Shown piece by piece: positions 2,530-22,268 of a stretch of DNA of 64,000 bases. Position 1 is the first letter of the stretch, and every line of letters starts with the position of its first letter. Position numbers and translations under genes: made by a program. Source of the stretch: an uncultured Bacteroidota bacterium. GTDB taxonomy: Bacteria > Bacteroidota > Bacteroidia > UBA4408. The stretch is from positions 9,414 through 73,413 of the forward strand of contig CAIKXD010000028.1 of assembly GCA_903831265.1 (NCBI GenBank), written 5' to 3'. The notes beneath the pieces are model-generated. The model worked only from the letters and a program-made list of their open reading frames with translations. It searched no databases and had not been told where the DNA came from.

Positions 2530-2727
2530 TTATTTTCCTTTTCTTCTGTCATTCATTTTTTTAGCACCGTAACCTGCACAAGCAGCAATTACTAGGCTAA
2601 GACCACCATCAATTGGTGTTGAAGTTGGAGGAGGACCAACTGGAGGTTGACCCATTACTGGTAAGAAAATAACTACACCAATAAAAATAAACAACAAAGT
2701 TGCTAAATTGAATTTCATATTTTTCAT
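2530..2727 (-). CDS. Small hypothetical membrane protein (65 aa) translationally coupled to the 1285-aa T9SS cargo gene
   Basis: Its ATG lies 1 nt after the TAA of the upstream giant gene. It has an N-terminal hydrophobic segment, a Pro-rich linker, a second hydrophobic segment and a basic tail (NDRRKGK). There is no recognisable family. Confidence 0.35.
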   Translation of the reverse strand: MKNMKFNLATLLFIFIGVVIFLPVMGQPPVGPPPTSTPIDGGLSLVIAACAGYGAKKMNDRRKGK

Positions 2728-2728
2728 T

Positions 2729-5700
2729 TTATTTAATAATTATTTTCTTTGTTACTAATGAATTATTTGATTGAATTTTAACCATGTAGATTCCTTGAGC
2801 TAAAGAAGGCAATTCTACAGTTGAAATTCCTTTACTTAAATTAACACCTTGTTGCATTAATAGCTTACCTGACATATCGAACAATACAACATCAGAAGCT
2901 GCTGCATCACCGTTATTGATAATACTTAATGACTCATTGTTATTAAAGAAATCAACATCATTTAAACTTACTTCGCTATCAGATAAAGCTACTTCACTAT
3001 TTTCGTAGTTTAAGTAAAATCTGTTGTTGTAAATAGAATTTGATAAAGCCACGCTGTATTTTGCACCAGTCTTTAATTTAACTTTTTTGTTGGCTTCAAC
3101 GTCTACCAAGTAAGCATTCAAATTGTTTTCAGTATTAGAAAATTCGGCCACGCTGAAAGTATAAATACCATCAACCTTAGCAATTAAATGCAATGGAATA
3201 CTTCTAGAAGGAATTAGATTTTCGAATGCCTTAATAGCAAGAATTCTGTTGTCTATAACCATACCTAACTCAGGGTGAGTTTCAGTTGGGTTATTCATCA
3301 TTTTAGCCATATCAATTTCTGGGTTGTAGTTTTCTGTACCGCCATTAACAGTACCAATTGCTAACTGATCAACACCATCTTGATTTTGAACATTTAACTT
3401 AACAATATTTTTAACAACTGCATCTCTATTGAAAGATGGCGAGTTAGAGCCATGTCTGATAGTGTTATCAGTAATTAAAGTACCACCAGCAGGAGTGCTT
3501 GTAGTAATTGCTACAGCTTGAGATGTAAAAATAGTATCAGTCATACCAAAAGTACTTAAGCCTGGAGCAGCACCGTTATAAAAACCGTAACCACTATTTG
3601 CAGCCGACCATCCATAGTATCCATTTTGCAAACTCACCTGACCTGGTAAATTTCTTAAAACCGAAAATCTAATTGGAGATGGATAAGGATTACCAATGAT
3701 ATGAAATCCACCATTTGTAGCAGGAAGTACATTTGACAATGGGCCATTATTTGCAGGACCAGTTACATCAAGTGTTCTTGCTAAAGAATTATGCAAAGTA
3801 GCAGAATATCCTACCAATGAATTTGATATTGGCTGACCAACCGCACTTTCCCAAGGAGTTACAGGAAGCGTGTTAGCTTCGTCATATGTCCAAATAGTTG
3901 GTGCATTTGGAGGCGCTGGAAGAGCCACGTTAGTTGCATAAGTATAAGGAAATAAACCTTGAACAACATAATCATCACCCCAAGCAGTTGTTGTAGTTAA
4001 GCCAGAAACTGGGCAAGAAATATATCTTGTTTTTGCTGGTGTAGCAGTAAGATATCTTTCTACAGTAACATTACCAGTTACGTTTGCAGTACCTGCACCA
4101 CTAATAATTCCTTGTCTTGTTGGGTTTGAAGATAATATCAAAAATCCATTACTATTTAAAGTTCCGTCAGTTACTGTAACAGTTCCTAAAACTTTCAAAG
4201 TTGATAAAAGCGTTGAAGTTGTAGAAGGCGTATTAATAGTTAAGTTATTAATAAAGCCATTGTTTTTTAAATTACCAACTGAACCAGAACCTGTAAAGTT
4301 AAAATTAGCATCAGTACCGAAAGAGCTAAATGATCCAGTACCAGTAATTGTCCCAGAAAAGTTAGCTGTTAAAGCAGCAGCGCCAAATTTATAACTAGCA
4401 GAACCAACCAAGTTTAAATTTACAAAACTGATATTTTTTTGTACAGTTAAAGTAACACCTGTTGAAACAGTAACAGCACCTAAAGGCAAGCTTAATAAGC
4501 TAATTGCTCCAGTTCCTGTACCACCAATTGTTCCACTACTTAAGAAGTTGATGTTACCGCTACCAGCAGTAATTGATAATGGATTATTTGAGTTATTAGT
4601 AATACCACCAGTTAAGTTTATTGCAGATGAACCAGTTCCATTTACAGTGAATTGACCAGTTGATGAAATTGTTAAACTAGTCATTGAAAGTGCGCCTGTT
4701 AAAGAAGTTGTAATAGAGGCACCAATAGTTAAGTTTCTGTATGTTCTTCCATTTACTTCAAAGCCATTAACAGTGTTAAATGTTTGGTTACTTCCTGGTC
4801 TAAATTCAACTGCACTTAAAGGTGCAAATTTTTGGAAAGGATTTTCACCACCATTATGAATGTAACTTGCTCCTGTTTCGAATTGAACTGAATTAGTTAT
4901 TGCAGTTGGACCACCAAAAGCAGCACCCAAGTAACTAACACCTGTAGTAAAAGAAGATCCAGTTTTAAATTTAACTGCACCAGCCACACTACCAATAATA
5001 CTTGAACCTGTATTTGAAATAACAGCACCAAAAATATTTGCAGTAGCATTTCCAACAAGTTTTATTGCTGAACCAACACCACCATTAATAGTTAAAGTTG
5101 AACCTGCATCTACTCTAAAATCATCGGAAGTTAATGAGTTACCATTAACTAATAATGAACTAGCGCCATCAATAAATAACGTAACGTTAGAATTATTTTG
5201 TATTTGTAGTGTACCTATAGTTTGTGCAGGTACATTGTCAATTACAGAAACTGAAGAAACTGTAGCACCAATAACTAATCTATCGTCAGCAGAAGGATTT
5301 GTTCTTGATGGTGTCCAATTTGCTGCTGTATTATAGTTGAATGGACCAGCACCAGCTTGATTCCAATTATATACAGTACCAGTATTAGAGGTAATTTGAC
5401 TTGCATTAGCTGTTGAAGAAATAAAATAGTTTTCACCTCCTGCAGCACCGTTATATTCAATGGCTCTAAAGTGATAAGTAGTATTTGGAGTTAAACCAGT
5501 TACTGTAACCACATTTCCTGTGCCATTGTTATTATAAACAACCCAATTACCTGATCCTAATTGATCACCTAAAGAGATAGCTGAATTAGCTACGTAGGTA
5601 GTTGCATCAGTTGGGTTAGTGTTTACTAAGCTACCTGATTTGATAAGCAATAATCTTTTAGCACCATTTCCACCACTCAAATTTACTTGAATTGAATTAG

Positions 5701-6586
5701 AAGAAACCGAACCAAAAGTAATAGTACCATTTGAAGTTGGCTCACCACCTAAAGTAACACCTAAATCACCTTTTAAACTAGGAATTGAAAGTTCAGCACC
5801 TGTAGGATTTAAAGCTACATAATTTCTAACTATAGTTCCAGCATCATTAGTGATTTGCAAATTTAACTCATAATGTACAGTTCCAGTAGTAGTTACCTGA
5901 CCTAAAAATACTCTGTTTGTACTTGTTGGCCCTGACATACCTGCAGTTCCTGAAGCAGCTAATACCGCAATTGAACCATTAGATAAGATAAAACTTCCAC
6001 TAGCTTGACTAACATCGCCAAAAACATTATTGATTGCCAATAAAGTTGCAGCATCAGCAGCAATTTGAACATCTTGTAAAGTACCATTAGTAAATCCATC
6101 TCTAGTGTTAAGTGTAGCACCTATAGAAGGGTCATTGTTTAACAATAAACCATTTGCATTTACTACAGTTCCAACGCCATTATCTTCTGTTTTCAAAATA
6201 CCTACTTGCGAAGTAGCTGGGTTGTTATTGTTAGTAGTAGCACCAATTGATAAATATGAATCAAGCATTACTGTATTATCAGCAGCTTGCGCTTTTGTCC
6301 AATTTGGTATTGAAGCACCTCTATCTGTATTATTGAAAAAGGTACTAGAGCTAACAAACTTTAGATCATGACCTGAAGTACCATAAACAGCTTGTAATTT
6401 AAAGCCAGTTGAAAGATCTGCAAAGAATCTATACGTAACAGATCCAACCGGTAAAGTACCCGCACTTCCTGCTGCATCAGCTGCATTAGAAACGTAGTAC
6501 TTCTCAACGATTATATTCTCTAACCCTTGCGCAAAGGAAAAACTCCCTGTTGCAACAAGCATTAGCATGATTAGTATTTTTTTCAT
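2729..6586 (-). CDS. Giant (1285 aa) T/S/N/G-rich secreted surface protein, T9SS cargo, with the conserved N-terminal 'VEKYY' paralog domain
   Basis: Signal peptide MKKILIMLMLVATGSFSFAQ. The N-terminal ~270 aa align with the 367/368/457-aa paralogs (IIVEKYY...LPVGSVTYR...NTVMLDSYLS...GILKTEDNG...TNRV...LN). A long low-complexity beta-rich body follows. The C-terminal T9SS sorting domain is ...LAQGIYMVKIQSNNSLVTKKIIIK. Confidence 0.85.
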   Translation of the reverse strand: MKKILIMLMLVATGSFSFAQGLENIIVEKYYVSNAADAAGSAGTLPVGSVTYRFFADLSTGFKLQAVYGTSGHDLKFVSSSTFFNNTDRGASIPNWTKAQAADNTVMLDSYLSIGATTNNNNPATSQVGILKTEDNGVGTVVNANGLLLNNDPSIGATLNTRDGFTNGTLQDVQIAADAATLLAINNVFGDVSQASGSFILSNGSIAVLAASGTAGMSGPTSTNRVFLGQVTTTGTVHYELNLQITNDAGTIVRNYVALNPTGAELSIPSLKGDLGVTLGGEPTSNGTITFGSVSSNSIQVNLSGGNGAKRLLLIKSGSLVNTNPTDATTYVANSAISLGDQLGSGNWVVYNNNGTGNVVTVTGLTPNTTYHFRAIEYNGAAGGENYFISSTANASQITSNTGTVYNWNQAGAGPFNYNTAANWTPSRTNPSADDRLVIGATVSSVSVIDNVPAQTIGTLQIQNNSNVTLFIDGASSLLVNGNSLTSDDFRVDAGSTLTINGGVGSAIKLVGNATANIFGAVISNTGSSIIGSVAGAVKFKTGSSFTTGVSYLGAAFGGPTAITNSVQFETGASYIHNGGENPFQKFAPLSAVEFRPGSNQTFNTVNGFEVNGRTYRNLTIGASITTSLTGALSMTSLTISSTGQFTVNGTGSSAINLTGGITNNSNNPLSITAGSGNINFLSSGTIGGTGTGAISLLSLPLGAVTVSTGVTLTVQKNISFVNLNLVGSASYKFGAAALTANFSGTITGTGSFSSFGTDANFNFTGSGSVGNLKNNGFINNLTINTPSTTSTLLSTLKVLGTVTVTDGTLNSNGFLILSSNPTRQGIISGAGTANVTGNVTVERYLTATPAKTRYISCPVSGLTTTTAWGDDYVVQGLFPYTYATNVALPAPPNAPTIWTYDEANTLPVTPWESAVGQPISNSLVGYSATLHNSLARTLDVTGPANNGPLSNVLPATNGGFHIIGNPYPSPIRFSVLRNLPGQVSLQNGYYGWSAANSGYGFYNGAAPGLSTFGMTDTIFTSQAVAITTSTPAGGTLITDNTIRHGSNSPSFNRDAVVKNIVKLNVQNQDGVDQLAIGTVNGGTENYNPEIDMAKMMNNPTETHPELGMVIDNRILAIKAFENLIPSRSIPLHLIAKVDGIYTFSVAEFSNTENNLNAYLVDVEANKKVKLKTGAKYSVALSNSIYNNRFYLNYENSEVALSDSEVSLNDVDFFNNNESLSIINNGDAAASDVVLFDMSGKLLMQQGVNLSKGISTVELPSLAQGIYMVKIQSNNSLVTKKIIIK

Positions 6587-6616: not shown

Positions 6617-8284
6617 TTAATCGCAAGATTGATTGAATTCTCCTAATAATTGAAGGAAATCTGCATTGTTTGTAACACCATCGGTATTTACATCGGTAGG
6701 GCAAGCAACAATACCTGAAGTAGCTGCAACTATATTTAAAATAGCCCAATCAGATAACCATGATTTTTTACCTGGCTCAAATGCACCTCTGTAATTTGCA
6801 GCTGTATAAAAACCATCAACTGGAGCAGCACATGTAGTAGCAACTAAATCTGGAACAGCGTCATATTTATCAGTTACAGCATTAGTAGCATAATCCATTA
6901 CATAAGTATAGTCGAAATTTGGCAAAGAAGCTACTGAAGTATTATTATCAGTTGTAAACTTTGTGTTATCTAATGCTAATGTACCGTATGTATATACAGA
7001 GTTGTTTTCTATTGCCAATGGAATTGAGCAATTTACAAAAGTATTACATTTAATTTGTAGTGTTCCGCTTGTTGCAAAACCTGCTTGCCAGTTACCATAA
7101 GCTTCGTTTGAACCATCTGATGTGTTTGCTGGAGGTCTGCTGTTTTTGATTTTATCAATAACAACACCTCTTTCATAGTTTGCAACGATGCAATTATAAA
7201 CTTCACCTTCTGTTCTTTCTTTAAAATTAAAACCAGCATCGCCAGAGTTATCAGCAGTAGCAGCACTTTGTGGTCTACCGATAAATGTTCCATTATATAA
7301 TTTTGGATGTGATCTTGGTGTAAGATTTGTAGTGTTATCATCACCATCAGCTTCAATACCATTATCAGTTAAAGTGTTACCACCATTATGTCTGTTTAGG
7401 TTAAAGAAAAATTGCACTTTACCAGTCCAACCTAAATCCCAGTCTAAAGCATCATCATCACCCCAATAAGTAGCGATATATTTTAAATTTACATTTCCAC
7501 CAAATAATTCGATACCGTCATCTGCAAAAGAGGTTACTTCAATATGATCAATAGTTGTACCTTGACCAACTGAACATAAAGTTAATGAATTTAACTCGTT
7601 ACCTGCTGCAATAATATCTCCAGCATGTCTGATAGAAATGTATCTCATGATACCTGAATTATCGTTAGCATCAGATCCACCATACCATGTTCTAGCATCT
7701 AACTCAGCATTTGAAATACCTTCTGGAGCACCTGTTCCATCTGGCTGACCTGCCACTTGTAAACCTGAAGCATTTGCAGAAGTTAAGTTGTTTGGTGCTT
7801 TACCACAAACTAAAATACCACCCCATTTACCACCATTTACACCACCTGCATTGTTATTGTAGTTACCAAGAATGTTATCGCTTGTAATATCTTCTTCAGC
7901 AGTAAAAACAATTTGACAAGTTGGTGAACCTGCTGCAATTATTTGACCACCTCTTTCAATAACTAAAGCTGATGCTTGACCACCACCTGGGTTATTTAAA
8001 TCGCGACCTAAAATAACGGTACCTGGATTAATAGTAATTGTTTTGTTGTTTGGTACGTAAATTTTTTCTTTAATCAAGTAATTGTTGTTGCAAGTTAATA
8101 CTGTATTTACAGCATTTAACTCCCCAAGAGTTGCCAATGTTGACAAGTCAACTGTTGGACGTGTGTTTACCGGAGGACAACCGCAATCAGCCCCCAAATT
8201 GTTTTGATTTTGCGCCTCGCTGCTTGTAGTTGCAAGGGTTAAAACAGCCGCTAGGCTAAGTAATTTTGATACTGTTTTTTTCAT
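6617..8284 (-). CDS. Secreted 555-aa protein, paralog of 17446..19122, from an unnamed TonB-dependent-receptor-associated family; dockerin-like C-terminus
   Basis: It has a signal peptide. Blocks shared with the 558-aa paralog include NSG.(M/L)RY.SIRH.G..IA.GNELN.LTL..VG..TTI...E...DDGIE(L/F)FGG.VN.KY...DD..DWD..WTGK.QF. The C-terminus TDVNTDGVTNNADFLQLLGEF resembles a single dockerin/EF-hand loop rather than a T9SS C-terminal sorting domain. Confidence 0.8.
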   Translation of the reverse strand: MKKTVSKLLSLAAVLTLATTSSEAQNQNNLGADCGCPPVNTRPTVDLSTLATLGELNAVNTVLTCNNNYLIKEKIYVPNNKTITINPGTVILGRDLNNPGGGQASALVIERGGQIIAAGSPTCQIVFTAEEDITSDNILGNYNNNAGGVNGGKWGGILVCGKAPNNLTSANASGLQVAGQPDGTGAPEGISNAELDARTWYGGSDANDNSGIMRYISIRHAGDIIAAGNELNSLTLCSVGQGTTIDHIEVTSFADDGIELFGGNVNLKYIATYWGDDDALDWDLGWTGKVQFFFNLNRHNGGNTLTDNGIEADGDDNTTNLTPRSHPKLYNGTFIGRPQSAATADNSGDAGFNFKERTEGEVYNCIVANYERGVVIDKIKNSRPPANTSDGSNEAYGNWQAGFATSGTLQIKCNTFVNCSIPLAIENNSVYTYGTLALDNTKFTTDNNTSVASLPNFDYTYVMDYATNAVTDKYDAVPDLVATTCAAPVDGFYTAANYRGAFEPGKKSWLSDWAILNIVAATSGIVACPTDVNTDGVTNNADFLQLLGEFNQSCD

Positions 8285-8468
8285 TGTTTTGGTTTTAAAT
8301 AATTAATTGGATTAGTAAATTTTACGTGTACAAAGATGATTTATAACCTTAAAAATAATGGTTGATTTTCTTTATGTTATCTTTACTAAAACAAATACAA
8401 AAAGACAAGAGAGTATTAACACAATGTTAATAGCAAGCGCACTTTGCTAATGAAATATTAACATTGAT

Positions 8469-8819
8469 TTATTTTGTATCTGTTCCGAAGTAAATGTGGG
8501 AATCTTGATAAAACTCGTCAAATAAATTTTTAAATTCTTGTAATTTAACCCAGTTAATTTTATAGATACTGGCTTGATTTCTTCCCACTGAAAAACGGGT
8601 AATTAAGCCTCCCTTATTTAAGGCTCTTAAATTTTTTTTTAATACAGTTACGCTAATTTGATGTTTAGCAATAAATTCATCATCGAAACAACTTTTATTT
8701 TTTGCTATACATTCAATAATGGCTACGCGAATGGGGTTGCCCATTAAGATACTTATTTTACCTATAGTAGTTTGCCTGTGCGTAAAATAGGGCAACACTC
8801 CTTTTTCTATAGAAAGCAT
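8469..8819 (-). CDS. Small winged-HTH transcriptional regulator, ArsR/SmtB-like
   Basis: The 116-aa protein contains ...GNPIRVAIIECIAK.....DEFIAKHQISVTVLKKNLRALNKGGLITRF.VGRNQ.SIYKIN, which fits an ArsR-type helix-turn-helix. The assignment is by motif only. Confidence 0.5.
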   Translation of the reverse strand: MLSIEKGVLPYFTHRQTTIGKISILMGNPIRVAIIECIAKNKSCFDDEFIAKHQISVTVLKKNLRALNKGGLITRFSVGRNQASIYKINWVKLQEFKNLFDEFYQDSHIYFGTDTK

Positions 8820-8869: not shown

Positions 8870-9631
8870 TTAGTCCTTAACACATCTTACACTTAAGCCA
8901 CAGTTTTTGTAGTCTTGATGCCTAAAAACTTTAGTACTTTTATAATCAAGGTACCTGTAAAAAGCTTTGCCATTTTCAGTTGCTGTTGAAGTCCACCAAA
9001 ATCCTGTTAGTTTTAAGCCTGGTTCACCCCAAATTCCATTTTGCTTTCTGCAACTTCCGGCTAGCGCCGAAAAACCACTTTCGTTGGTTGGCCAATTTTC
9101 AACTTCAGTTAACCAACCTTTTTTGCCCTCTAACTTGAGTTTACTTCCTTGATCAGTGCCTCTCCATCCAGTTTTTTCGATATCCGTTTGGGTCATTCCT
9201 AAAGATAATTCTAAAGCTTGCCAATCTTGTTCTGTAGCAATGTGCCAGCCAGCTGGAGCAATTTTTCTATTATCATTAACAGCAAACCAATTATACAACA
9301 AGCCCGGTGAGTTAACATCATTCTTATAGCTGCAATAGCCAGCTATGGAATCTTTCCAAAATTCATCAGAGGCTGCATTTCTAATTGGCGTTCCATCATT
9401 GTATGATTTTACACTTAAATTTTCTGCCATCCACCATTGATTGCCAATTTTTACAATCTTGTAATAATTGCTATCTACATCCATAATGGAATCATAAATT
9501 GGCGAGGGCACCAATTTAATTTCATCCTTTTTACAACTAAAAGGAATAAACATAACATTACAAATTAGCAATACTATTAGCAGCGGGTAAAAAAATGATT
9601 TTAAATATTTTTCTTGAAACAATCGTAACAT
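8870..9631 (-). CDS. FISUMP (Fibrobacter succinogenes major paralogous domain, TIGR02145) lipoprotein
   Basis: There is a lipoprotein signal (FIPFSCKKD). The hallmark FISUMP motifs are present: KIGNQWWMAENL, GLLYNWFAV, APAGWHIATEQDWQALE, SGFSALAGSCR, GFWWTST. Confidence 0.8.
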   Translation of the reverse strand: MLRLFQEKYLKSFFYPLLIVLLICNVMFIPFSCKKDEIKLVPSPIYDSIMDVDSNYYKIVKIGNQWWMAENLSVKSYNDGTPIRNAASDEFWKDSIAGYCSYKNDVNSPGLLYNWFAVNDNRKIAPAGWHIATEQDWQALELSLGMTQTDIEKTGWRGTDQGSKLKLEGKKGWLTEVENWPTNESGFSALAGSCRKQNGIWGEPGLKLTGFWWTSTATENGKAFYRYLDYKSTKVFRHQDYKNCGLSVRCVKD

Positions 9632-10954: not shown

Positions 10955-10961
10955 TTTATTC

Positions 10962-13900: not shown

Positions 13901-14021
13901 CTAAACCACCGATCACTGGTTCCCCATTCTCATCAGTAACCTTTCCTCTAAGCGTACCTTGAGCTTTTATATTAATGATATTACTAATTAATATTATTAA
14001 TACGATGCAAAACCTTTTCAT
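10962..14021 (-). CDS. TonB-dependent outer-membrane receptor (1019 aa) with an N-terminal CarboxypepD_reg-like domain
   Basis: Signal peptide, then GKVTDENGEPVIGGLVV...TDLDGNYAI (carboxypeptidase-regulatory-like fold). A plug region follows (TAAAAVARVSGV...ITVRGIGDRY...INGL) and then a long beta-barrel ending in an aromatic-rich C-terminus. It is a paralog of 19212..22268. Confidence 0.9.
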   Translation of the reverse strand: MKRFCIVLIILISNIINIKAQGTLRGKVTDENGEPVIGGLVVLKNNKLIASSTDLDGNYAIKIPDSTSQIVVVSYIGYLTVEENISLKNGQILIKNFDLKSSTKEIKELVVEAKANRAKDYYLDKMKINSVTSIDFVSSETIKKTGDATAAAAVARVSGVSSSGSFITVRGIGDRYVKTQINGLVIPTLDPLTNNIKLDLFPSSLLDNIFITKTASADLAGDFSGALISLETKDFPDRLMVNVESTVGYNSQSTFRQYVSSERSSTEWLGYDSDLRDIDHLAYQPVIEEPTVYQQLVVLGLEDFYNAIGVNKDTPWSDDYFKLGLVQLGLLDKGQFNDLEAVNAAKNTFNSNNENRNKAYRAINSKASAFGKSLPNNWDTKYRVAPLNFSQSFSIGNQVNLFKRPLGIIGGFRYSSAVQYDSVSDINRLLPADVNGPQTFILNAKQQSTKETNGLSGLLQLTYKVHPNHTIGFLFMPNFLGVNNVRTFLDSANGVNNVVVKDQFYEQRRQLVYQAKTQHYFPTIKSKLNFNLSYTNGKSVAPDFKSLAYALLPNNQNAIGGGFPIRRFYRYLNEDLLDANIKIEVPLFEKPNLARKLKFGGSFLNTIRDSRQYEYFYSAGPFTASGFENEDLQGFFNLSEYEFSEQTNLSGLPETTINKSYLAVDLDSYHTIGRTNIYSGYALLDYTIVPRLRASAGARIEYTNIYADVFKFDSIGYEAFDERRFQPGDAFMVNPGAINQANLLPSLNVICKLRNLETSPINLRVNYSKTIARPSVRELTETTIFDYEYRNFIFGNADLKTVDIHNYDLRLESYFENGDNISVSFFYKKFFNHIELVQTTQGFSWQNANESNVKGIELDGRKIIMKGLEFRANLTLAQSITEVIQNNIYVKNNIKVVEPFDTLTRQMSGQAPYVINGIISYTMDSLRLSTSIAYNVQGPRLAVVSSQPGFVPDVFELPRHMLDFRIAKELGKRFAVTVTIKDILNSPVRRSYQLPEGFTADFDRYRFGTNYNLSISYKL

Positions 14022-14067: not shown

Positions 14068-15171
14068 TTATAGCTTAATTAATTTCTTTGTAGAAACCAC
14101 TCCATTTAAATTAATTTGCATAAAATAAATTCCTTTATTTAAGCGACTTAAATCAATGGTATCGCTATAATTACTATTTAATGTAGGAATTGAATTGGCG
14201 ATTACCTCTTTACCCTCCATGCTATAAATAGTATAAAACATATATTGTTTTTTGTTATCAGCATTGGATGACTTTACTTCAATATTTAAATTATCTTTAA
14301 TTGGATTGGGATAAATTTTGTAAACAGCACCTGTAGGGTTTAAATCTTGTAAGTTTGTTAAGTTACCCGAATCGTAAACTAATGCTGGGTGTTGAAATTG
14401 AGAGCCAGTAGGATTTTCAGCAACATATTGCTCTGTTCCTCCACCTGGTGTTCCTAATTGCAAATTAAGTTTAAAAGTTAAAACGCCATCTGTTGTTAAC
14501 TGAGCAATTAATACCCTGTTGGTATTTGCATCAGGACCAGTAGCACCACCCAAGGCTGCCCATGAACCATTATCTGTAGAAAACAAATTGCCAATAGTAC
14601 TATTACCAAATACATTAATTACTGAACTAATTCCAACTGCAGTAACAGAAACAGGCGTTCCTGCTAATAATCCATCCTGAGTTGATAAAGGAATACCTGC
14701 ATCAACATTTGCACTTTGTAAAATTGAACTAACATTGCATCCTGAACATGAATTAACATTGGTATTTAAACCATCGTCATCTGTTTTTAAAACGCCAAAA
14801 TAACCATTGCAAGCACCTCCTACAGACAACCATGAATCAAGCATCACCGTGTTTTTAGCTGAATTGTTTTTAGAAAAAGTTGGAGATGTACTTCCATAAT
14901 CCATATTGTTAAAAAACTGGGTGGTAGTTTCTATCCTTAATTCTTGACCTTGTAACCCAAAAGCCGCTTGAAACGTGTATCCTGCTGCCATATCTACATA
15001 AACTCTGTATGTTGTAGAACCTACAGGAAGAATTCCTCCAACAACATTCGCATTCGTATCATTAGCTTCAGAGATATAATATTTTTCAACGATGATATCT
15101 TCTAATCCATTTTGTGCTTGCGCATAAAAACATGCAAATAATAAAGGTAGTGCTAGTAACGTTTTTTTCAT
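14068..15171 (-). CDS. T9SS cargo protein (367 aa) of the 'VEKYY' N-terminal-domain paralog family
   Basis: Signal peptide ...FYAQAQ. The conserved N-terminal domain is present (DIIVEKYYISEAND...LPVGSTTYRVYVDM...NTVMLDSWLSVG...GVLKTDDDG...TNRVLIAQLTTDG). The T9SS C-terminal domain is ...IYPNPIKDNLNIEV...GIYFMQINLNGVVSTKKLIKL. Confidence 0.85.
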   Translation of the reverse strand: MKKTLLALPLLFACFYAQAQNGLEDIIVEKYYISEANDTNANVVGGILPVGSTTYRVYVDMAAGYTFQAAFGLQGQELRIETTTQFFNNMDYGSTSPTFSKNNSAKNTVMLDSWLSVGGACNGYFGVLKTDDDGLNTNVNSCSGCNVSSILQSANVDAGIPLSTQDGLLAGTPVSVTAVGISSVINVFGNSTIGNLFSTDNGSWAALGGATGPDANTNRVLIAQLTTDGVLTFKLNLQLGTPGGGTEQYVAENPTGSQFQHPALVYDSGNLTNLQDLNPTGAVYKIYPNPIKDNLNIEVKSSNADNKKQYMFYTIYSMEGKEVIANSIPTLNSNYSDTIDLSRLNKGIYFMQINLNGVVSTKKLIKL

Positions 15172-15198: not shown

Positions 15199-16305
15199 TT
15201 AGTGATTAACAATTAATTTCTTTGAGAAGCTATGAGTTGCATCTTCTATTTTTATAAGATATATTCCCGATTCGATGCCTTGCATAGAAAACTGATATCC
15301 ATCTTTAGAAACTGCACCAACTTTGCGCTGATCTAAAAGCACACCGCGGCTATCATAAAGTGAAATCAAACTGTTTTGCTCCATTTTAATCTTAGGTTTA
15401 ATGGTCAATATTTCATCGGTCAATGGATTGGGAAATATATCAATACCATTATTTTTTTCGAAGATTGCAATATCCTTTAATGAAGAAGGAGTGCTTACAG
15501 AATCGTTTAGCGCTGCCAATAAAATTGAACTAGTATCACCAGGCAAAGCCTCTGCTACATAGCGCTCAACCCCACCCGTAGGTGTACCTATTTGAACATT
15601 TAATTTATATTTTAGGCTACCGTTGGTAGTAATTTGAGCAATCAACACTTTATTTATTGCGCTATCTGCGCCAGTGGCACCAGACAAACAATACCATGAA
15701 CCATTTGTGGTGCTAAAAACTGGACCATTAGTTCCATCATTTTGGCTCCCAAAAACACCAATCTCTGTATCAATACCTATGCTTCCAAAAACACCTGGAT
15801 TACCTAATTGCAAGCCATCTTGTGTATTGATTGGAATGCCGCAGTTAACATCATCGTTTTGTAATACTTGAGGAGTTTCGGCGTTAACAACCGTTGCGTT
15901 GCTATCTGTATCTTCTGTTTTTAACACCCCAAAATTACCAATACACGCAGCGCCAGAAGACAGCCAAGAATCTAGCATCACCGTATTGTCTTTTGCATTA
16001 GCTTTTGTGTAATTAGGTTGAACATCACCTCTGTCTTCATTATTAAAAAATAAAGTTGATGTTTCTATTCTAAGCTCGTGACCCGGCAAACCATAAGCAG
16101 CTTGAAACTTGTAGTTAGGTAATAAATCTAAATAAAATCTATACGTAACAGACCCAACGGGCAGCTTACCTCCTACATCATTTACTGTAGTATCGTTGTT
16201 ATTGGATTTATAATACTTTTCAACGATTAAACCCTCTAATCCGTTTTGGGCTAAACTAATTTTAAGAAATAAAAAAAATAGTAGAATTGTAGCTTTACCT
16301 TTCAT
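15199..16305 (-). CDS. T9SS cargo protein (368 aa) of the 'VEKYY' N-terminal-domain paralog family
   Basis: It is a tandem paralog of 14068..15171 (GLIVEKYYKSNNND...LPVGSVTYRFYLDL...NTVMLDSWLSSG...GVLKTEDTD). The T9SS C-terminal domain is ...IFPNPLTDEILTI...GIYLIKIEDATHSFSKKLIVNH. Confidence 0.85.
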   Translation of the reverse strand: MKGKATILLFFLFLKISLAQNGLEGLIVEKYYKSNNNDTTVNDVGGKLPVGSVTYRFYLDLLPNYKFQAAYGLPGHELRIETSTLFFNNEDRGDVQPNYTKANAKDNTVMLDSWLSSGAACIGNFGVLKTEDTDSNATVVNAETPQVLQNDDVNCGIPINTQDGLQLGNPGVFGSIGIDTEIGVFGSQNDGTNGPVFSTTNGSWYCLSGATGADSAINKVLIAQITTNGSLKYKLNVQIGTPTGGVERYVAEALPGDTSSILLAALNDSVSTPSSLKDIAIFEKNNGIDIFPNPLTDEILTIKPKIKMEQNSLISLYDSRGVLLDQRKVGAVSKDGYQFSMQGIESGIYLIKIEDATHSFSKKLIVNH

Positions 16306-16638
16306 GAAATGCGTTGTTAAATTTGAAAGTGCAAAAGAAGCACTATTGTCGCGTTTGATAGATATATAAATTGTTACTATTACGTTAAAGCTACAAGAAA
16401 AAATTAGCCATACTAAGTGACAAATTATTTATTTAAAAATTAGAGCAAACACATGTATTTCAGACATTTTAAAAACAATTAGGTACTGTTTAAGAAAATG
16501 CAATAAACAACTTAATAACACTAAATTAACCATTTAATTATTTTGATATGTTTTTAGAGGAAATAAATAATTAAAAGTGCACAGTTAAAACTTTACAATT
16601 ACTTAACCCAACTGTACTTTATTGTAATTTTATGGATG

Positions 16639-16646
16639 TAATTTTG
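16639..16646 (+). promoter_or_regulatory. Candidate Bacteroidota sigma-A -7 element (TAATTTTG) upstream of the PIG-L deacetylase gene
   Basis: It matches the TAnnTTTG consensus ~20 nt upstream of the TTG start at 16666. The upstream TTG at 16622-24 has suboptimal spacing. Confidence 0.3.
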
Positions 16647-16665
16647 AGGACTCAAAATTGTTTTC

Positions 16666-17292
16666 TTGAATAAAAAAGTATTAATTATTGCGCCTCATTT
16701 AGATGATGGAAAATTAGGTTGTGGAGGCACTATTACAAAGCTTTTAGACCAAGGCATGTTTATTTATTATGTGGCATTTTCTATTGGCAATATTGTTGAT
16801 GAGCATAATGTTAATGCTAATATTTTGTTAACTGAATGTAAAGATGCATGCAAAACTTTAGGAATTACTGATGATAAATTAATTATTAAACTATTTCCAT
16901 TTAGAAAGCTAAACGAGCACAGGCAAGAAATTCTGGAGATTTTAATTGATTTAAAGCGTAAAATAAACCCTGATATCGTATTTATGCCCTCCAGCCAATC
17001 AATACACCAAGACCACAAAGCTGTATACCAAGAAGGAATTAGAGCATTTAAACACAAAACTTGTTATGGCTATGATTTACCATGGGATACAGATAATTTC
17101 AAAACTTCATGTTTTTTTACTTTAGATAAAAGACAGCTTAACTTAAAAATAGCTTCCCTTAAAATGTATGCTTCATTAAAGCATAAAACCTACATGGAAG
17201 AAAACTTTCTAAAAGGTTTGGCGCGTGTTAGAGGCACTCAAATAAATGTTGAATTTGCAGAAGCATTCGAAGCCATTCGCACTGTAGTTTAA
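16666..17292 (+). CDS. PIG-L/LmbE family N-acetylglucosaminyl deacetylase
   Basis: It has the LIIAPHLDDG...GCGG metal-binding signature and a downstream HQDH motif. It is 208 aa. The apparent start is a TTG; there is no in-frame ATG before the catalytic motif. Confidence 0.8.
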   Translation: MNKKVLIIAPHLDDGKLGCGGTITKLLDQGMFIYYVAFSIGNIVDEHNVNANILLTECKDACKTLGITDDKLIIKLFPFRKLNEHRQEILEILIDLKRKINPDIVFMPSSQSIHQDHKAVYQEGIRAFKHKTCYGYDLPWDTDNFKTSCFFTLDKRQLNLKIASLKMYASLKHKTYMEENFLKGLARVRGTQINVEFAEAFEAIRTVV

Positions 17293-17445: not shown

Positions 17446-19122
17446 ATGAAAAAATTCTACACAATTGCAGCAAGCTTGCTTTTTGGTTTTACAAGCCTAC
17501 AAGCACAAAGCATTATTAACATTGTTGATGCCGACTTAGTAGGCGGTCAAACATACAATTGGACCAAAAACAACGTTTATGTTTTAGATGGCGTTGTATT
17601 TCTTGAAGATGGCGGCACTTTAAATATTGAAGCTGGCACAGTAATTAAATTTACCCCTAGAGCTGATGTTGGTAATCCATCTGCATTAGTTATTTGTCGT
17701 GGTGCTAAAATTTACGCAACTGGCACCGTGGCTGAACCAATTATTTTTACAGCAGAAGATGATGACATGGCAGATGGAACTGATTTAGGTCCAACAGACA
17801 ATGCACTTTGGGGTGGTGTTGTATTATTGGGAAAAGCTTTTACCGTAAAAAATGGCAACAATGAAGTAAATGTTGAAGGTATTCCTACAACTGAACCAAG
17901 AGGTGTTTATGGTATGCCAGCTGGAGCAAATATTGACAATGATAACTCAGGTGTTTTACGTTATGTTTCTATACGTCATGGAGGTCGTCAAATTGCGAGT
18001 GGTAGTGAATTAAACGGATTAACCTTAGGTGCTGTGGGTAGCGCTACAACAGTAGAATATGTTGAAATATATGCTAACTCTGATGATGGCATCGAATTTT
18101 TTGGGGGAACAGTAAATGTAAAATATGCTGCTGTTGCATTTACCGAAGATGATAGTTTTGATTGGGATGAAAGTTGGACTGGAAAAGGTCAGTTTTGGTT
18201 CTCTATCCAAAGAGATGATATTGCTGATGCTGGTTGGGAATGCGATGGAAGTACACCTAATGATTTAACACCTGCTTCTGATCCAATTGTATTTAATGGA
18301 ACACATATTGGTTCAGGTGCAGCTGCTGCTGCGGCCAATCCAATTGGATGGTTATTCCGTGCAGGTACTAAAGGCTATGTTGCAAATAGTATTGTAAGCG
18401 AAATGAAAGGTAAAGGAATTGAAGTTCAAGATAGCCCTTCAAATAGCAATGATGCTTATGCTCAATTAATCGCAGGAGAATTAATTATCAAAAACAATTT
18501 ATTCCACAATATTGGAAGTACAACAGTAATTGATGGAAGTGCTAATGGCATAATCAGAATCACTGCAAGTGCCGATGATGCAACTGCTGCGGCTTTAATT
18601 TCTCACTTAACTACAAACAGCAATCAAATAGCTAATCCTGCCCTTTATAATGTTAGCAGAACTCAAGATGGTTTGCTAGACCCACGCCCAAGTGGAACTG
18701 GAGCAGCTTATACAACTGCTTTAGACGCTTATCCTGCAGGTGATGCTTTCTTTACAGCAGTTAATTACAAAGGTGCTTTTTCAACTGCGTCAACCGACTT
18801 ATGGCTATCTAGCTGGTCGAGTTTAGCCAAAAACGGACATTTAGTAAATGTTACTGGGATCAATGAATATAACAATGTTGTAAATTCATTAATGCTATAT
18901 CCAAATCCAACCAAAGGAAATTTAAATATCGCTTACGAGTCAAATAAAAATGTATTGGTTCAAATTATCAATACACAAGGGCAAGTGGTAAAAACATTAA
19001 ACAACAAACCTTCAGTTGGTGCACCACAAACAGTGGATGTTTCTGACTTAAGTAAAGGATTGTATTTCATAAGCTTTACAAACGGTGATAATCAATTCAG
19101 TAAGAAATTAATTATTGAATAA
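17446..19122 (+). CDS. Secreted 558-aa T9SS cargo protein, paralog of 6617..8284 (unnamed TonB-dependent-receptor-associated family)
   Basis: Signal peptide ...TSLQAQ. It shares conserved blocks with the 555-aa paralog (see that entry). The T9SS C-terminal domain is LYPNPTKGNLNIAYES...GLYFISFTNGDNQFSKKLIIE. Confidence 0.85.
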   Translation: MKKFYTIAASLLFGFTSLQAQSIINIVDADLVGGQTYNWTKNNVYVLDGVVFLEDGGTLNIEAGTVIKFTPRADVGNPSALVICRGAKIYATGTVAEPIIFTAEDDDMADGTDLGPTDNALWGGVVLLGKAFTVKNGNNEVNVEGIPTTEPRGVYGMPAGANIDNDNSGVLRYVSIRHGGRQIASGSELNGLTLGAVGSATTVEYVEIYANSDDGIEFFGGTVNVKYAAVAFTEDDSFDWDESWTGKGQFWFSIQRDDIADAGWECDGSTPNDLTPASDPIVFNGTHIGSGAAAAAANPIGWLFRAGTKGYVANSIVSEMKGKGIEVQDSPSNSNDAYAQLIAGELIIKNNLFHNIGSTTVIDGSANGIIRITASADDATAAALISHLTTNSNQIANPALYNVSRTQDGLLDPRPSGTGAAYTTALDAYPAGDAFFTAVNYKGAFSTASTDLWLSSWSSLAKNGHLVNVTGINEYNNVVNSLMLYPNPTKGNLNIAYESNKNVLVQIINTQGQVVKTLNNKPSVGAPQTVDVSDLSKGLYFISFTNGDNQFSKKLIIE

Positions 19123-19141: not shown

Positions 19142-19180
19142 AAATAGCAGGGGGCAAACGTCTCCTGCTATTTGTGTTTA
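19142..19180 (+). terminator. Hairpin (aaatagcagg...cctgctattt) followed by a partial T-run; possible terminator/attenuator between the 558-aa gene and the receptor gene
   Basis: It has a 10-bp perfect stem and a 12-nt loop, followed by GTGTTTAAC. It sits in the 89-nt gap before the receptor gene on the same strand. Confidence 0.4.
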
Positions 19181-19211
19181 ACAGACTGGCTAAAACAACT
19201 ACACAATTAAA

Positions 19212-22200
19212 ATGAAAAATTACTGCTTTAAATCACTTTTATTTACATTCTTTTTACTGCAAATTAGTGCACATGTTTACTCACAAAACGGAAATATATC
19301 TGGTAAAATAATTGACAAATTAACCGGTGAAGAAATCATTGGAGCTGTTGTAAAAATAGACAGCACAAATACTGCTACTTCAACTGATTTAAGTGGCAAC
19401 TACAATTTAAAAGTACCCGCAGGCAACCATACAATTGTATGCAACTTTATAAGTTACAGAAAAATTATTGTAAAAAATGTATCAGTTAAAGCAGGAGAAA
19501 GCATCACACTTGATTTTACTTTAGAATCTGATAATGTAGAAATTAAAGAAGTAGTAATTGAAGCTGTGCAACAAAGAAACACAGATGCATCTTTAATCTC
19601 CATTCAAAAAAAATCATTCGCTGTGCAAGATGGTATTTCGGCACAACAAATGGCACGCACGGGCAGCAGCAATGCTGCAGAATCAATGAAACAAATGACT
19701 GGCGCCAATGTAGAAGATGGCAAATTTATGGTAATGCGCGGGCTAGGCGATAGATATTCTATTGCACAATTAAACGGACTTCCAATTCCAAGTAGTGACC
19801 CTTATCGCAATGCATCTAGTTTAGATTTAATTCCTTCATCATTTGTTGACAATATTGTTACCACAAAAACCTTTACGCCAGATCAACCGGGCAATTTTGC
19901 AGGAGGAAATTTAAATATTAGCACTAAAAGTTTTCCTGAAAAACCTTATGTAACTGTAAACATTTCACAATCAATGAATACGCTTTCTTCTATGAATGGC
20001 GATTTTCTTAGTTATCAAGGTGGAAGCACAGACTGGAGAGGAGTTGATGATGATACTAGAAAAGTACCTTTGATTGCTTTAAATGATTCGATCAGAGATA
20101 TGATTAATTCAAGTTTATACCTTGATGCACGCAAAAAAAGCAAAGACTTTGAAATAGAAAGACAACTGTTTAATAGCTCGGCTAAAGTTTTTAGCAATGA
20201 ATTTATTGCAGAAAAAACTGGTGAAGCAAATAACGAAAGCGGTGTGGGATATCAATTAAGGCAAGCATTTGGTTTAAATAATAATTATAATAAAACCCCC
20301 TTAAACAACAACTACAGCCTTGCAGCTGGACAAAGGTATGTGATTGGAAAAACCGAAATTGGGATGACAATTGGAGGAAATTATCAAAGAAATTTTACAC
20401 ATTATAACGATGGAGAAATAAATACCTTCATCAACACCAATACCGAAAAATTATTTGCGTACCAAGCACTTAAAGAAACTAAAAGTATTGATAATCCTCA
20501 ACTTGGAGGACTAGCTAATTTAGCAGTAAAGATTGCTAAAAAACACACAATCGGTATAACTGGTATTTACAGCAATGATGCAGAAAAAGTTGCACGTCAG
20601 CAATCTGGTACTTTTATGGGACAAGTATCAGATTCACGCGCTCAATTTAATACCAATGTATTAGAATTTACACAAAGAGAATTAAAGACACTTGTTGTTA
20701 ATGGAAGCCACAGTTTTAAACTATTAAATGGTTTAGATATCGATTGGTCGGCAAGTAATACCAATACACGCCAATACGAGCCAGATTTGCGTTATTTTGC
20801 TTATACCTCTGTTAAAGATACTGCCGATTCGGTTGGTGCAAATGGTGATTTAGTAAGATACCTCGATACTGCTTATTACATGAACAATGCTGAGTTTGCA
20901 TTTCCATATCACTTTTATAGAGATTTAAAAGATAGTCAACAACAAGCAAAAATTGATTTTACATTAAACATTAATAAGTCGCAAAGCTTTAAAATAAAGT
21001 GGGGTGGATATTACAGTTCAACTAAAAGAAAATTCGAGGAGTATCGCTTTCAAATGAACAACTCGGGCATTCAATCTTCACAAAAGTTATTGTTAGATAA
21101 TTACAATGGCGATTTAAATGCATTTTTAGATAGTGATAATTTTGGCATTACCGATACAACTAGAAACTCGCAAGGTGCTATCACAAGATATGCTACAGGC
21201 TGGCATTACATCAATCAAGTTAACAACAGAAACTTTTATACGGGCCAACAAGATATTACTGCAGCCTACGCCATGACAGTATTTTCACCACTTAAAAATT
21301 TAAAAATAATTACAGGTGCGCGCATCGAAAGTACCAACTTAAATGTAGCAAGCCGCGATACAAATGCCATATTTTATTCAATTAATGGCGATAGTATTAT
21401 CGATCCAGGTAAGCTAAAATTATTAGATCTTTTACCATCTATAAATACTGTTTATGCTTTAACCGAAAAATCTAACTTAAGATTGGCATTTAGTCAAACA
21501 ATTGCACGTCCAAACATGAGAGAATTAGCTCCTTTCGAGCAGTTTGATACAAAAAATGGTTTTTACAACGTGGGTAATCCAGGCTTAAAAAGAACCTTAA
21601 TTAATAACTTCGATATTCGTTATGAGTTTTACACACGTCCTGGAGAAATAATTGCCGTAAGTGCTTACTATAAAACCTTTAAAGATCCTATCATTAGAGC
21701 ATTTAATCCTAAGGCAACTATACCAGAGCTTAGCTTTGTAAATGTTGATAAAGCAGAAGTATTAGGTGCCGAATTCGAATTCAGAAAAAGCTTAGATTTT
21801 ATTTCCCCTTTCTTGCACGATTTTTACATAAATACCAACTTAACTTTAATCAATTCTCGTGTTGATATTCCAGTAAAAGAAATTGAAAATTCTAAAAATG
21901 TTGACTCAACTTATGCTGTAGAAAGCCGCCCGTTTCAAGGACAAGCGCCTTACATTGTAAATGCTATTTTAACCTATGCCAATCCTAAAATTGGTCACGA
22001 AAGTTCACTATCATTCAACGTATCTGGACCAAAATTATACAGCATTTCATTATTTGCCACGCCCGATATTTATGAATCACCAGTGCCATTTTTAAATTTT
22101 AAAACCACTCAAAATGTGGGTAAATACTGGCAATTTTCGCTAGTTATGCGCAATTTATTAAACGCAAAAGTGTCTAAAACGCAAGTTTACCGTGGCCAAA

Positions 22201-22268
22201 CCTATTATGCCGAAACATTTCAAATTGGAAGAACATTTGGCTTAGGAGTAAGCTTTAAAATCAAATAA
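19212..22268 (+). CDS. TonB-dependent outer-membrane receptor (1018 aa) with an N-terminal CarboxypepD_reg-like domain
   Basis: Signal peptide, then GKIIDKLTGEEIIGAVVKIDST...TDLSGNYNL. A plug region follows (MKQMTGANVEDGKFMVMRGLGDRYS...LNGLPIP) and then a C-terminal barrel (...GRTFGLGVSFKIK). It is a paralog of 10962..14021. Confidence 0.9.
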   Translation: MKNYCFKSLLFTFFLLQISAHVYSQNGNISGKIIDKLTGEEIIGAVVKIDSTNTATSTDLSGNYNLKVPAGNHTIVCNFISYRKIIVKNVSVKAGESITLDFTLESDNVEIKEVVIEAVQQRNTDASLISIQKKSFAVQDGISAQQMARTGSSNAAESMKQMTGANVEDGKFMVMRGLGDRYSIAQLNGLPIPSSDPYRNASSLDLIPSSFVDNIVTTKTFTPDQPGNFAGGNLNISTKSFPEKPYVTVNISQSMNTLSSMNGDFLSYQGGSTDWRGVDDDTRKVPLIALNDSIRDMINSSLYLDARKKSKDFEIERQLFNSSAKVFSNEFIAEKTGEANNESGVGYQLRQAFGLNNNYNKTPLNNNYSLAAGQRYVIGKTEIGMTIGGNYQRNFTHYNDGEINTFINTNTEKLFAYQALKETKSIDNPQLGGLANLAVKIAKKHTIGITGIYSNDAEKVARQQSGTFMGQVSDSRAQFNTNVLEFTQRELKTLVVNGSHSFKLLNGLDIDWSASNTNTRQYEPDLRYFAYTSVKDTADSVGANGDLVRYLDTAYYMNNAEFAFPYHFYRDLKDSQQQAKIDFTLNINKSQSFKIKWGGYYSSTKRKFEEYRFQMNNSGIQSSQKLLLDNYNGDLNAFLDSDNFGITDTTRNSQGAITRYATGWHYINQVNNRNFYTGQQDITAAYAMTVFSPLKNLKIITGARIESTNLNVASRDTNAIFYSINGDSIIDPGKLKLLDLLPSINTVYALTEKSNLRLAFSQTIARPNMRELAPFEQFDTKNGFYNVGNPGLKRTLINNFDIRYEFYTRPGEIIAVSAYYKTFKDPIIRAFNPKATIPELSFVNVDKAEVLGAEFEFRKSLDFISPFLHDFYINTNLTLINSRVDIPVKEIENSKNVDSTYAVESRPFQGQAPYIVNAILTYANPKIGHESSLSFNVSGPKLYSISLFATPDIYESPVPFLNFKTTQNVGKYWQFSLVMRNLLNAKVSKTQVYRGQTYYAETFQIGRTFGLGVSFKIK

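Follow-up and report, generated by a model that had tools for sequence, protein, structure and literature searches.

The 64,000-nucleotide stretch of contig CAIKXD010000028.1 analysed here (the window) comes from an uncultured freshwater Bacteroidia bacterium and contains, at positions 2530..22268, a locus built around two TonB-dependent transporters (TBDTs), each paired with a secreted protein of the ElpS / FI-FII / BT4056 family. On balance, the locus probably represents two ElpS-type outer-membrane uptake modules, most likely members of the Pho regulon. The core of the locus is a known ElpS-type TBDT pair and not a new kind of system. What is new is that anchoring by type IX secretion (T9SS) or a dockerin-like tail replaces lipid anchoring, that a surface-protein family designated VEKYY and a FISUMP lipoprotein are in fixed association with the pair in a widespread operon of uncultured Bacteroidota, and that a candidate Pho box precedes these genes. 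Phosphorus limits production in lakes, where Bacteroidia are major degraders. ElpS-type proteins are among the strongest-expressed phosphate-starvation proteins in Flavobacterium, and many uncultured freshwater and sludge Bacteroidota have rebuilt the ElpS-type pair around type IX secretion and expanded it with the VEKYY family. The system can now be approached experimentally through the candidate Pho box, a co-evolving set of surface proteins with predictable contacts, and a conserved acidic site open to mutation.

Two transporters and their ElpS-type partners

The original prediction, made from the sequence alone, described two receptors of ~1018 amino acids (aa) with CarboxypepD_reg and plug domains, each paired with a paralogous secreted protein of 555 or 558 aa. 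All of its open reading frames (ORFs) were recovered in place in an ORF map of 2530..22268. Pfam agrees on the domains of both receptors, which are 1019 aa (10962..14021, minus strand) and 1018 aa (19212..22268, plus strand) long and share 28% identity over their full length (E 1e-99). Their partners, the 555-aa protein (6617..8284, minus strand) and the 558-aa protein (17446..19122, plus strand), are 35% identical over 474 aa (E 3e-60). The minus-strand pair belongs to an operon, and the plus-strand pair forms a two-gene cassette.

The partner family, which the original prediction regarded as unnameable, is PF28492 (Beta_helix_4). This assignment was made via the precomputed Pfam annotation of homologs of the 558-aa protein; the direct scan used an older Pfam release without the family and gave no match. 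The family comprises more than 7,500 clusters at 90% identity, and full-text literature searches found no mention of PF28492 or Beta_helix_4. A tblastn search of plasmids and chromids with the 558-aa protein found homologs in Pseudoalteromonas, Alteromonas, Marinobacter, Sphingomonas, Indioceanicola, Parabacteroides, Bacteroides and Phocaeicola. The Indioceanicola (E 1e-33) and Sphingomonas (E 4e-20) homologs are encoded upstream of a TBDT followed by gspN-D-E-F-G, which is the elpS-cc0171-gsp layout of Caulobacter (PMC2996285) and supports membership in the ElpS family. In Parabacteroides the homolog (38% identity over 251 aa, E 4e-40) is a lipoprotein, and its gene, like that of the Bacteroides homolog, lies downstream of a non-SusC TBDT gene. 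The partner TBDTs are themselves homologous across ElpS-type loci (E 2e-86 and E 2e-52), with the TBDT at 19212..22268 showing full-length homology to those adjoining the ElpS-type genes of Parabacteroides and Sphingomonas; the pairing of a beta-helix gene with an adjacent, co-oriented non-SusC TBDT is thus conserved. In addition, the motifs DDGIExFGG and DDSxDWD are invariant in seven aligned proteins from three phyla. The link to the named proteins CC0170, Fjoh_3856 and BT4056 was made through homologs at matching loci, the named proteins being compared by description. Membership of the 555- and 558-aa proteins in the ElpS / FI-FII / BT4056 family appears well supported by these homologies, with one exception, the predicted lack of a lipid anchor in the window proteins.

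ElpS is a surface lipoprotein of Caulobacter crescentus that is induced by phosphate starvation and whose gene adjoins those of a TBDT and of the gsp cluster (PMC2996285). Homology of the window proteins to ElpS (CC0170) was shown via the Sphingomonas and Indioceanicola intermediates, and the ElpS/CC0171 pair has the same order as the plus-strand cassette, with the beta-helix gene upstream of the TBDT, as well as homologous TBDTs. However, ElpS is a lipoprotein released via type II secretion, whereas the window proteins have no lipobox and instead carry a T9SS domain or a dockerin-like tail. Furthermore, the window TBDTs carry the Bacteroidota N-terminal extension, unlike CC0171, and Caulobacter has no VEKYY or FISUMP partners.

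In Flavobacterium johnsoniae, Lidbury et al. (PMC8115612) reported that phosphate depletion induces the "hypothetical lipoproteins" FI, FII and FIII, which have a pectin-lyase fold and adjoin CarboxypepD_reg TBDTs without SusD. FI was the top exoprotein by abundance in phosphate-depleted cells, its cluster includes two proteins with T9SS signals, and FII is encoded in the phoBR-OprP operon (PMC8115612). All three proteins are related to Caulobacter ElpS. The loci PUSIII (Fjoh_3853-3859, encoding the FI lipoprotein, a TBDT and two T9SS-domain proteins) and PUSIV (phoBR-OprP-TBDT Fjoh_0545-FII Fjoh_0546) resemble the window in having a pectin-lyase-fold surface protein beside a CarboxypepD_reg TBDT and no SusD; PUSIII also shares T9SS-signal proteins without a Pfam domain, and PUSIV resembles two related loci (L001 and L002) in which a kinase and a regulator stand ahead of the cassette. 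However, FI and FII are lipoproteins, unlike the 555- and 558-aa proteins, and the F. johnsoniae clusters hold ECF sigma/FecR or phoBR genes, an S41 peptidase and a cytoplasmic phosphodiesterase, which window-type loci do not conserve. FISUMP was not reported at PUSIII or PUSIV (PMC8115612).

A third relative is the BT4055/BT4056 pair of Bacteroides thetaiotaomicron, for which Price et al. proposed that BT4056 acts as an alternative "lid" for the TBDT BT4055 (bioRxiv 10.1101/2023.03.17.533168). Pairs of this type were found in 621 genera in the same study, which places the ElpS-type pair among the most widespread TBDT partnerships. BT4056 is of the pectin-lyase superfamily, the pair embodies the concept of the original prediction, namely a non-SusD surface protein serving a TBDT, and the Parabacteroides and Bacteroides homologs found here share its layout. 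It differs from the window in that BT4056, whose gene follows that of its TBDT, is a lipoprotein, whereas the window proteins are anchored differently, and in that one window module has four extra surface proteins. For BT4055/BT4056, AlphaFold-Multimer gave few confident contacts and no phenotype was seen (bioRxiv 10.1101/2023.03.17.533168).

The locus is not a canonical polysaccharide utilisation locus. Like SusC/SusD loci, it has TBDTs with the Bacteroidota N-terminal extension and co-transcribed surface accessory proteins, including a surface lipoprotein. Unlike them, it has no SusD/RagB, no sequence-level match to GH, PL or CE families of carbohydrate-active enzymes (CAZymes), no hybrid two-component or extracytoplasmic function (ECF) regulator and no catabolic genes, and its barrels lie outside the SusC family. 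The absence of SusD/RagB and glycoside hydrolases claimed in the original prediction agrees with Pfam and NCBIfam scans of the ORFs of at least 100 aa in 2530..22268, which gave no match to SusD/RagB, glycoside hydrolase or lyase families. As to SusC, TIGR04056 scored 52 bits against a cut-off of 368 and aligned only to residues 28-130, the N-terminal extension. The nearest NCBIfam model of the TBDT at 10962..14021 is TonB-Xanth-Caul, below its cut-off and not SusC, and the best barrel model of the window TBDTs is TIGR01782 (237 bits for the TBDT at 19212..22268).

The same scans bear on whether the TBDT might work outward, exporting the 555-aa protein as Myxococcus Oar secretes PopC. This would fit the Sec signal peptide that the 555-aa protein carries alone and the N-terminal CarboxypepD_reg domain that the TBDTs share with Oar, and it has a precedent in Oar/PopC (PMC6434023). 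However, the window TBDTs have no match to the Oar-type barrel families, Pfam and NCBIfam yielding CarboxypepD_reg, Plug, TonB_dep_Rec_b-barrel and TIGR01782 alone, and the 558-aa protein and the lipoprotein homologs have export routes of their own, yet keep the same TBDT partner. Outward transport is the least probable of the explanations considered here.

Fold, acidic site and anchoring of the ElpS-type proteins

An AlphaFold model of the beta-helix protein shows a right-handed parallel beta-helix of the pectin-lyase superfamily with a mean confidence score (pLDDT) of 88.7. Its structural matches are alginate epimerase/lyase, PL6 and PL9 lyases and polygalacturonases, at sequence identities of only 7-15%, and searches of PDB sequences with the 558-aa protein and the family profile gave matches confined to the T9SS C-terminal domain. 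The two subfamilies, compared through 74 members, share 13 invariant Asp/Glu residues and an invariant K226. The Asp-Asp doublets 213/214 and 235/236 occupy equivalent positions on successive coils and may form a cation-binding ladder.

The fold raises the question of whether the locus is a non-canonical polysaccharide-utilisation (carbon) locus, in which the beta-helix proteins would be surface lyases or hydrolases, the VEKYY and FISUMP proteins would bind glycans, and TBDTs of the TonB-Xanth-Caul type would import oligosaccharides as in the CUT loci of Xanthomonas and Caulobacter. The enzymes matched by the fold, the resemblance that the Asp ladders may bear to the Ca sites of pectate lyases, and the TIGR01782 scores of the barrels all speak for this explanation, and Lidbury et al. 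(PMC8115612) raised glycan binding or hydrolysis for FI and FII. However, the identity of the fold matches is low, there is no sequence-level link to a solved CAZyme, and a carbon locus, though compatible with our preferred reading if the target is a phosphorylated glycan, is rather unlikely given the gene content and the cis-element described below.

The two window proteins differ from their relatives in how they would be held at the surface. A lipobox is present in the Parabacteroides and proteobacterial homologs, with the Parabacteroides protein showing the surface-lipoprotein signal CSDDDD, and is absent from both the 555- and the 558-aa protein, whose type I signal peptides end in AQ; neither thus has the N-terminal lipoprotein signal of the ElpS family. 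The 558-aa protein carries a T9SS C-terminal domain and the 555-aa protein does not. Instead, all 43 orthologs of the 555-aa subfamily (L003-L078; L numbers denote loci) have an N-terminal NLGxxCGCP motif (8180-8284 in the window) and the C-terminus (C)PTDxNxDGxTNxxDFLxLLGxFNQxC (6617-6700 in the window), a single dockerin-like Ca loop between two Cys residues that matches Dockerin_1 below cut-off (E 0.019). The 555-aa protein is presumably located at the cell surface, and we speculate that it docks to a VEKYY or Cys-rich partner. As a separate observation, the proteobacterial ElpS-type proteins of Pseudoalteromonas (L086, 6393-9194) and Indioceanicola (L091, 9758-12628) are 933-956 aa long and contain two tandem beta-helix domains.

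VEKYY and FISUMP accessory proteins

The remaining genes of the minus-strand operon encode further surface proteins. The operon opens with two VEKYY proteins of 368 aa (15199..16305) and 367 aa (14068..15171), both with a VEKYY domain and a T9SS C-terminal domain. After the TBDT come a Cys-rich VEKYY protein (9644..10954) with an ACNYD-type insert and a T9SS C-terminal domain, and then the FISUMP lipoprotein (8870..9631; Fib_succ_major, E 1.5e-43). The last gene encodes a large VEKYY protein of 1285 aa (2729..6586), the orthologs of which keep this position in most loci. The start of the third VEKYY gene is most likely ATG 10954 and not TTG 11017, since the ATG start yields a signal peptide. 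Gaps between the genes are 7-50 bp, except for the spacer around an ArsR-like ORF (8469..8819), and a strong intrinsic-terminator-like hairpin (2473..2506, minus strand) with a 15-bp stem, 7 G-C pairs and a T tract ends the operon.

As the original prediction had noted, the four VEKYY proteins share an N-terminal domain of ~270 aa, which starts with GLExIIVEKYY and is 36-44% identical among them, and all four match Por_Secre_tail above cut-off. The combination of a Por_Secre_tail/TIGR04183 match with a Sec signal, which marks T9SS type A cargo, was found in the four VEKYY proteins, the 558-aa protein and a neighbouring LamG protein, and not in the 555-aa protein. The 1285-aa protein is composed of a signal peptide, the VEKYY domain, an FN3 / purple-acid-phosphatase-N-like domain, a repetitive stalk of ~800 aa and a T9SS type A domain. 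In the longer family members, the VEKYY domain is likewise N-terminal and is followed by Ig-like spacers and then the T9SS domain, a layout that looks like a distal binding head on a stalk.

No Pfam family matches the VEKYY domain. Within 1.84 billion proteins it makes up a compact family, with 853 clusters at 50% identity; the members checked all come from metagenomes or metagenome-assembled genomes (MAGs). A model of the domain (pLDDT 78) shows a beta-sandwich with long loops, and its comparison with known structures gave no informative structural neighbour and no fold match. The claim that the system is genuinely uncharacterised holds for the VEKYY domain, the FISUMP partner, the mode of anchoring and the biochemical function of the ElpS family, and not for the ElpS-type pair as such, which has been published, as has its induction under phosphate starvation. 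VEKYY proteins showed no fusions to enzymes, and a few of them carry the starch-binding modules CBM48, CBM20 or X25. FISUMP is a ligand-binding domain with the C-type-lectin fold and a target of diversity-generating retroelements; in the FISUMP lipoprotein, CKKDE follows the lipid Cys, which we take to be a Bacteroidota surface-export signal. The lectin fold and the starch-binding modules would also suit glycan binding at a carbon locus. The roles of the VEKYY and FISUMP proteins may lie in capture or tethering. The proposal that T9SS-attached surface proteins take the role of SusD-like lipoproteins is judged reasonable, most of the accessory proteins being T9SS cargo.

Conservation of the operon and the cassette

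A scan with the VEKYY alignment, using one genome per species, found at least 335 relatives, the best 80 of which all came from uncultured Bacteroidota MAGs from lakes, groundwater and sludge. Conservation was assessed in 85 loci by tblastn mapping and all-against-all clustering of 913 ORFs. Only four families are conserved, namely VEKYY (266 copies in 83 of the 85 loci), the TBDT (78), FISUMP (59) and the beta-helix protein (50); SusD is not among them, and the conserved core includes no regulator, inner-membrane transporter or cytoplasmic enzyme. The gene order is fixed and recurs in at least 43 loci, all from uncultured Bacteroidota MAGs, with one to three VEKYY genes, the TBDT, the Cys-rich VEKYY gene (always directly downstream of the TBDT), FISUMP, the beta-helix gene and the large VEKYY gene. 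Chance juxtaposition, which the original prediction had named as a possible failing, was ruled out by this synteny in dozens of genomes. No enzyme of sugar catabolism, sugar transporter of the inner membrane, hybrid two-component regulator or ECF/anti-sigma pair is co-conserved with the core either, which weighs against a carbon locus.

The plus-strand pair, in which the beta-helix protein has a T9SS domain and precedes its TBDT, is a separate two-gene cassette. It stands alone in housekeeping contexts in L001, L002, L084 and L085 and has the operon as its neighbour in just two cases, the window and its nearest relative, L005, a MAG from Lake Mendota; L072 has a more distant beta-helix/TBDT pair in the vicinity of its operon. 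The original view of a duplicated receptor-centred capture system therefore stands in so far as a receptor-centred surface set is co-conserved, whereas a single duplicated system was ruled out, since operon and cassette are separate in almost all genomes. The predicted divergent transcription of the two modules from the shared 360-bp control region (16306..16665) agrees with the orientation of the genes.

Three further products of the region proved not to be conserved among related loci, namely a LamG protein, a PIG-L/LmbE-family deacetylase (16666..17292, plus strand; PIG-L family, E 3e-19), which adjoins the cassette only in the window and L005, and the 116-aa ArsR-like helix-turn-helix ORF mentioned above. 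The original prediction was correct that FISUMP, ArsR-like and PIG-L genes are present, the ArsR-like match being weak and under cut-off (E 0.0012). However, PIG-L and the ArsR-like ORF were ruled out as parts of the system and are lineage-specific passengers, because they are not conserved; the ArsR-like ORF itself occurs only in the window and L005, with distant relatives inside or close to the operons of L024 and L050.

These data also bear on metal acquisition, in which the acidic beta-helix would bind a metal or metallophore at the surface and feed it to the TBDT under an ArsR-type metalloregulator. The 13 invariant acidic residues and the position of the ArsR-like ORF inside the operon would suit such a role, and the Pseudoalteromonas pair adjoins TonB-ExbBD near siderophore genes. 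However, the ArsR-like ORF matches weakly and is found inside or close to the operon in no more than four loci, no other metal-homeostasis gene was enriched among 127 neighbours, and Fe limitation represses the homologous F. johnsoniae clusters, which are strongly induced, and by phosphate depletion alone (PMC8115612). Metal acquisition is therefore very improbable. The Pseudoalteromonas pair lies directly after a DUF3450-ExbB-ExbB-ExbD-TonB-TPR cluster.

A candidate Pho box

A k-mer analysis showed that TTAAC-type words are enriched upstream of the operon. The half-site TTAA[CT][AC] has a spacing peak at 11 bp, with 14 exact TTAA[CT][AC]-N5-TTAA[CT][AC] pairs and lesser peaks at 22, 33 and 44 bp, whereas dinucleotide shuffles gave 0.22 expected pairs and a maximum of 2 in 500 shuffles. 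At 11-bp spacing, 31 of the 57 operon upstream regions match at 11/12 or better, compared with 4-6 of 57 at spacings of 9, 10, 12 or 13 bp and with 21 of 254 control intergenic regions at 11-bp spacing. The sites are oriented (31 forward vs. 13 reverse) and lie at a median of 100 bp upstream of the start codon, and arrays of at least three half-sites occur in 15 loci. Direct repeats of this architecture are typical of the PhoB/PhoP-type boxes of OmpR-family regulators. Arrays of the same repeat also precede the Porin_O_P-pst operons of L058 and L022.

In the window, Pho-box-like repeats with an 11-bp period occur in the control region between the two modules and upstream of the 555-aa gene. 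The control region contains TTAACGTAATAGTAACA (10/12; 16372-16388, minus strand), situated 83 bp upstream of the ATG of the operon and aligned with a perfect box in L005, as well as ATAACACTAAATTAACC (11/12; 16515-16531, plus strand) and TTTACAATTACTTAACC (11/12; 16592-16608, plus strand), the latter 74 bp upstream of the PIG-L start. Direct repeats at 8414..8461 (minus strand), 130-177 bp upstream of the 555-aa gene, include TTAACATTGTGTTAATA (12/12; 8414-8430), 130 bp upstream of that gene, and TTAATATTTCATTAGCA (11/12). Outside the locus, a box of the same type, TTATCAATTACTTAACA (35156-35172, plus strand), lies 71 bp upstream of a phoH-like gene (35243..36577, plus strand) and is nearly the same 17-mer as in the control region of the locus. 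The product of this gene matches PDB 3b85, a "phosphate starvation-inducible protein" (E 7e-27), and the box is a candidate for a second Pho-regulon promoter in the window. The TTAAyM repeats thus represent a candidate Pho box shared with pst and phoH genes. A further array of three half-sites at 11-bp spacing, TAAACAAATCCTTAACACATCCTTAATT (61478-61505, minus strand), is intergenic and lies ~300 bp upstream of the ORF at 60465..61181. A scan for sigma-70 promoters gave a result no better than shuffles, using a model ill-suited to Bacteroidota.

Phosphorus genes near the operon and the proposed function

The neighbours of the operon in other MAGs pointed to phosphorus and then to the ElpS/FI-FII literature. 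A Porin_O_P-PstS-PstC-PstA-PstB-PhoU cluster lies upstream of the operon in L058 and L062, PhoU_div-Porin_O_P-PstS-PstC lies downstream of it in L022, and PhoU_div and a PHO4 transporter are near it in L049. L052 encodes a T9SS protein of 1803 aa that combines three metallophosphatase domains with a purple-acid-phosphatase N domain, PhoX (PDB search) is found near the operon in L066 and L072, and Ppx/GppA is near it in five loci. OmpR-type response regulators or HisKA kinases are adjacent in at least 10 loci. When the Pfam families of 127 further flanking ORFs were tallied blind, the commonest included PhoX, Ppx-GppA, Metallophos, Trans_reg_C and Response_reg. Ten initial PhoX candidates among the neighbours proved to be other proteins, one being a PHO4 transporter, and the large neighbour in L064 had no PDB match. 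Both the neighbours and the cis-element thus indicate phosphorus, against a carbon locus.

Based on this context and on the candidate box, the locus would be under Pho regulation, and its substrate would be a phosphorus-containing, probably Ca-bridged polyanion. Under phosphate limitation, an OmpR/PhoB-type regulator would bind the 11-bp-spaced TTAAyM repeats in the control region and upstream of the 555-aa gene. The beta-helix protein, held at the cell surface through a T9SS C-terminal domain in the 558-aa protein and a mini-dockerin tail in the 555-aa protein, would use its 13 invariant acidic residues, with the Asp-Asp ladders on successive coils, to capture the substrate or to cut a piece from it, and would hand it to its own TBDT for import with TonB energy. 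In the larger module, three to five T9SS-anchored VEKYY proteins and the lectin-fold FISUMP lipoprotein may add capture or tethering. A carbon polysaccharide seems to us a less likely substrate than a phosphorus-containing polyanion, which could be a phosphorylated glycan.

Several observations weigh against two Pho-regulated ElpS-type modules. The pectin-lyase fold, the lectin-fold FISUMP protein and the rare starch-binding modules fit a glycan target equally well. The window contains no phosphate-uptake gene, phosphatases, inner-membrane transporters and regulators are absent both from the vicinity of the locus there and from the core conserved in the 85 loci, and many loci have unrelated neighbours, so that the phosphorus context is a tendency and not a rule. 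ElpS showed no phosphatase activity on pNPP (PMC2996285), and no function has been found for it in 15 years. The 555-aa protein, having neither a lipid anchor nor a T9SS domain, has no evident route across the outer membrane. Finally, the window's own box ahead of the main operon is degenerate (10/12), and the half-site is AT-rich in a genome of 33% G+C, the controls being shuffles, other spacings and other intergenic DNA.

A more specific but unlikely version is a T9SS-anchored "phosphorus-harvesting" assembly. Here, the VEKYY domain would be a new binding or scaffold fold to which the 555-aa protein docks via its mini-dockerin, the beta-helix would act as a new enzyme, dependent on Ca, that cuts polymeric organic phosphorus, and the TBDT would import the fragments. 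Candidate polymers are teichoic-acid-like phosphoglycans, polyphosphate, phytate complexes and extracellular DNA. Such an assembly, if it exists, would assign a biochemical function to the ElpS family, now 15 years old.

Other genes in the window and in related loci

In the window, a peptidoglycan transglycosylase with a long N-terminal extension (248-2239, plus strand), a glutamine-hydrolysing asparagine synthase (24242-26230, minus strand) and the transcription-repair coupling factor Mfd (36653-40045, plus strand) are housekeeping neighbours. No tRNA genes and no Rfam families at gathering score were found in the window (1-64000). Just downstream of the second TBDT lies the gene for the LamG protein (22753-24024, plus strand), which matches Laminin_G_3 (concanavalin-like) and ends in a T9SS C-terminal domain; it is also a neighbour in L005, has a homolog near the operon in L020 and is otherwise not conserved.

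In one clade (L015, L018, L021, L023, L026, L027, L029, L031 and L033), the operon is divergent from genes for three tandem sulfotransferases, a Wzx-like flippase and an O-antigen-polymerase-like protein, which suggests a sulfated surface polysaccharide locus. A stand-alone winged-helix protein of ~98 aa (Trans_reg_C-like, with no receiver), possibly a local regulator, is encoded immediately upstream of the operon in L040, L044, L050, L059 and L079. A small MORN-repeat / YwqK-like protein lies beside the ElpS-type pairs of Parabacteroides (L088, 9372-9842), L052, L058 and L062, accompanied in the last three by a stand-alone CarboxypepD_reg ORF, and a MORN-like ORF is also present in the window at 29288-30088.

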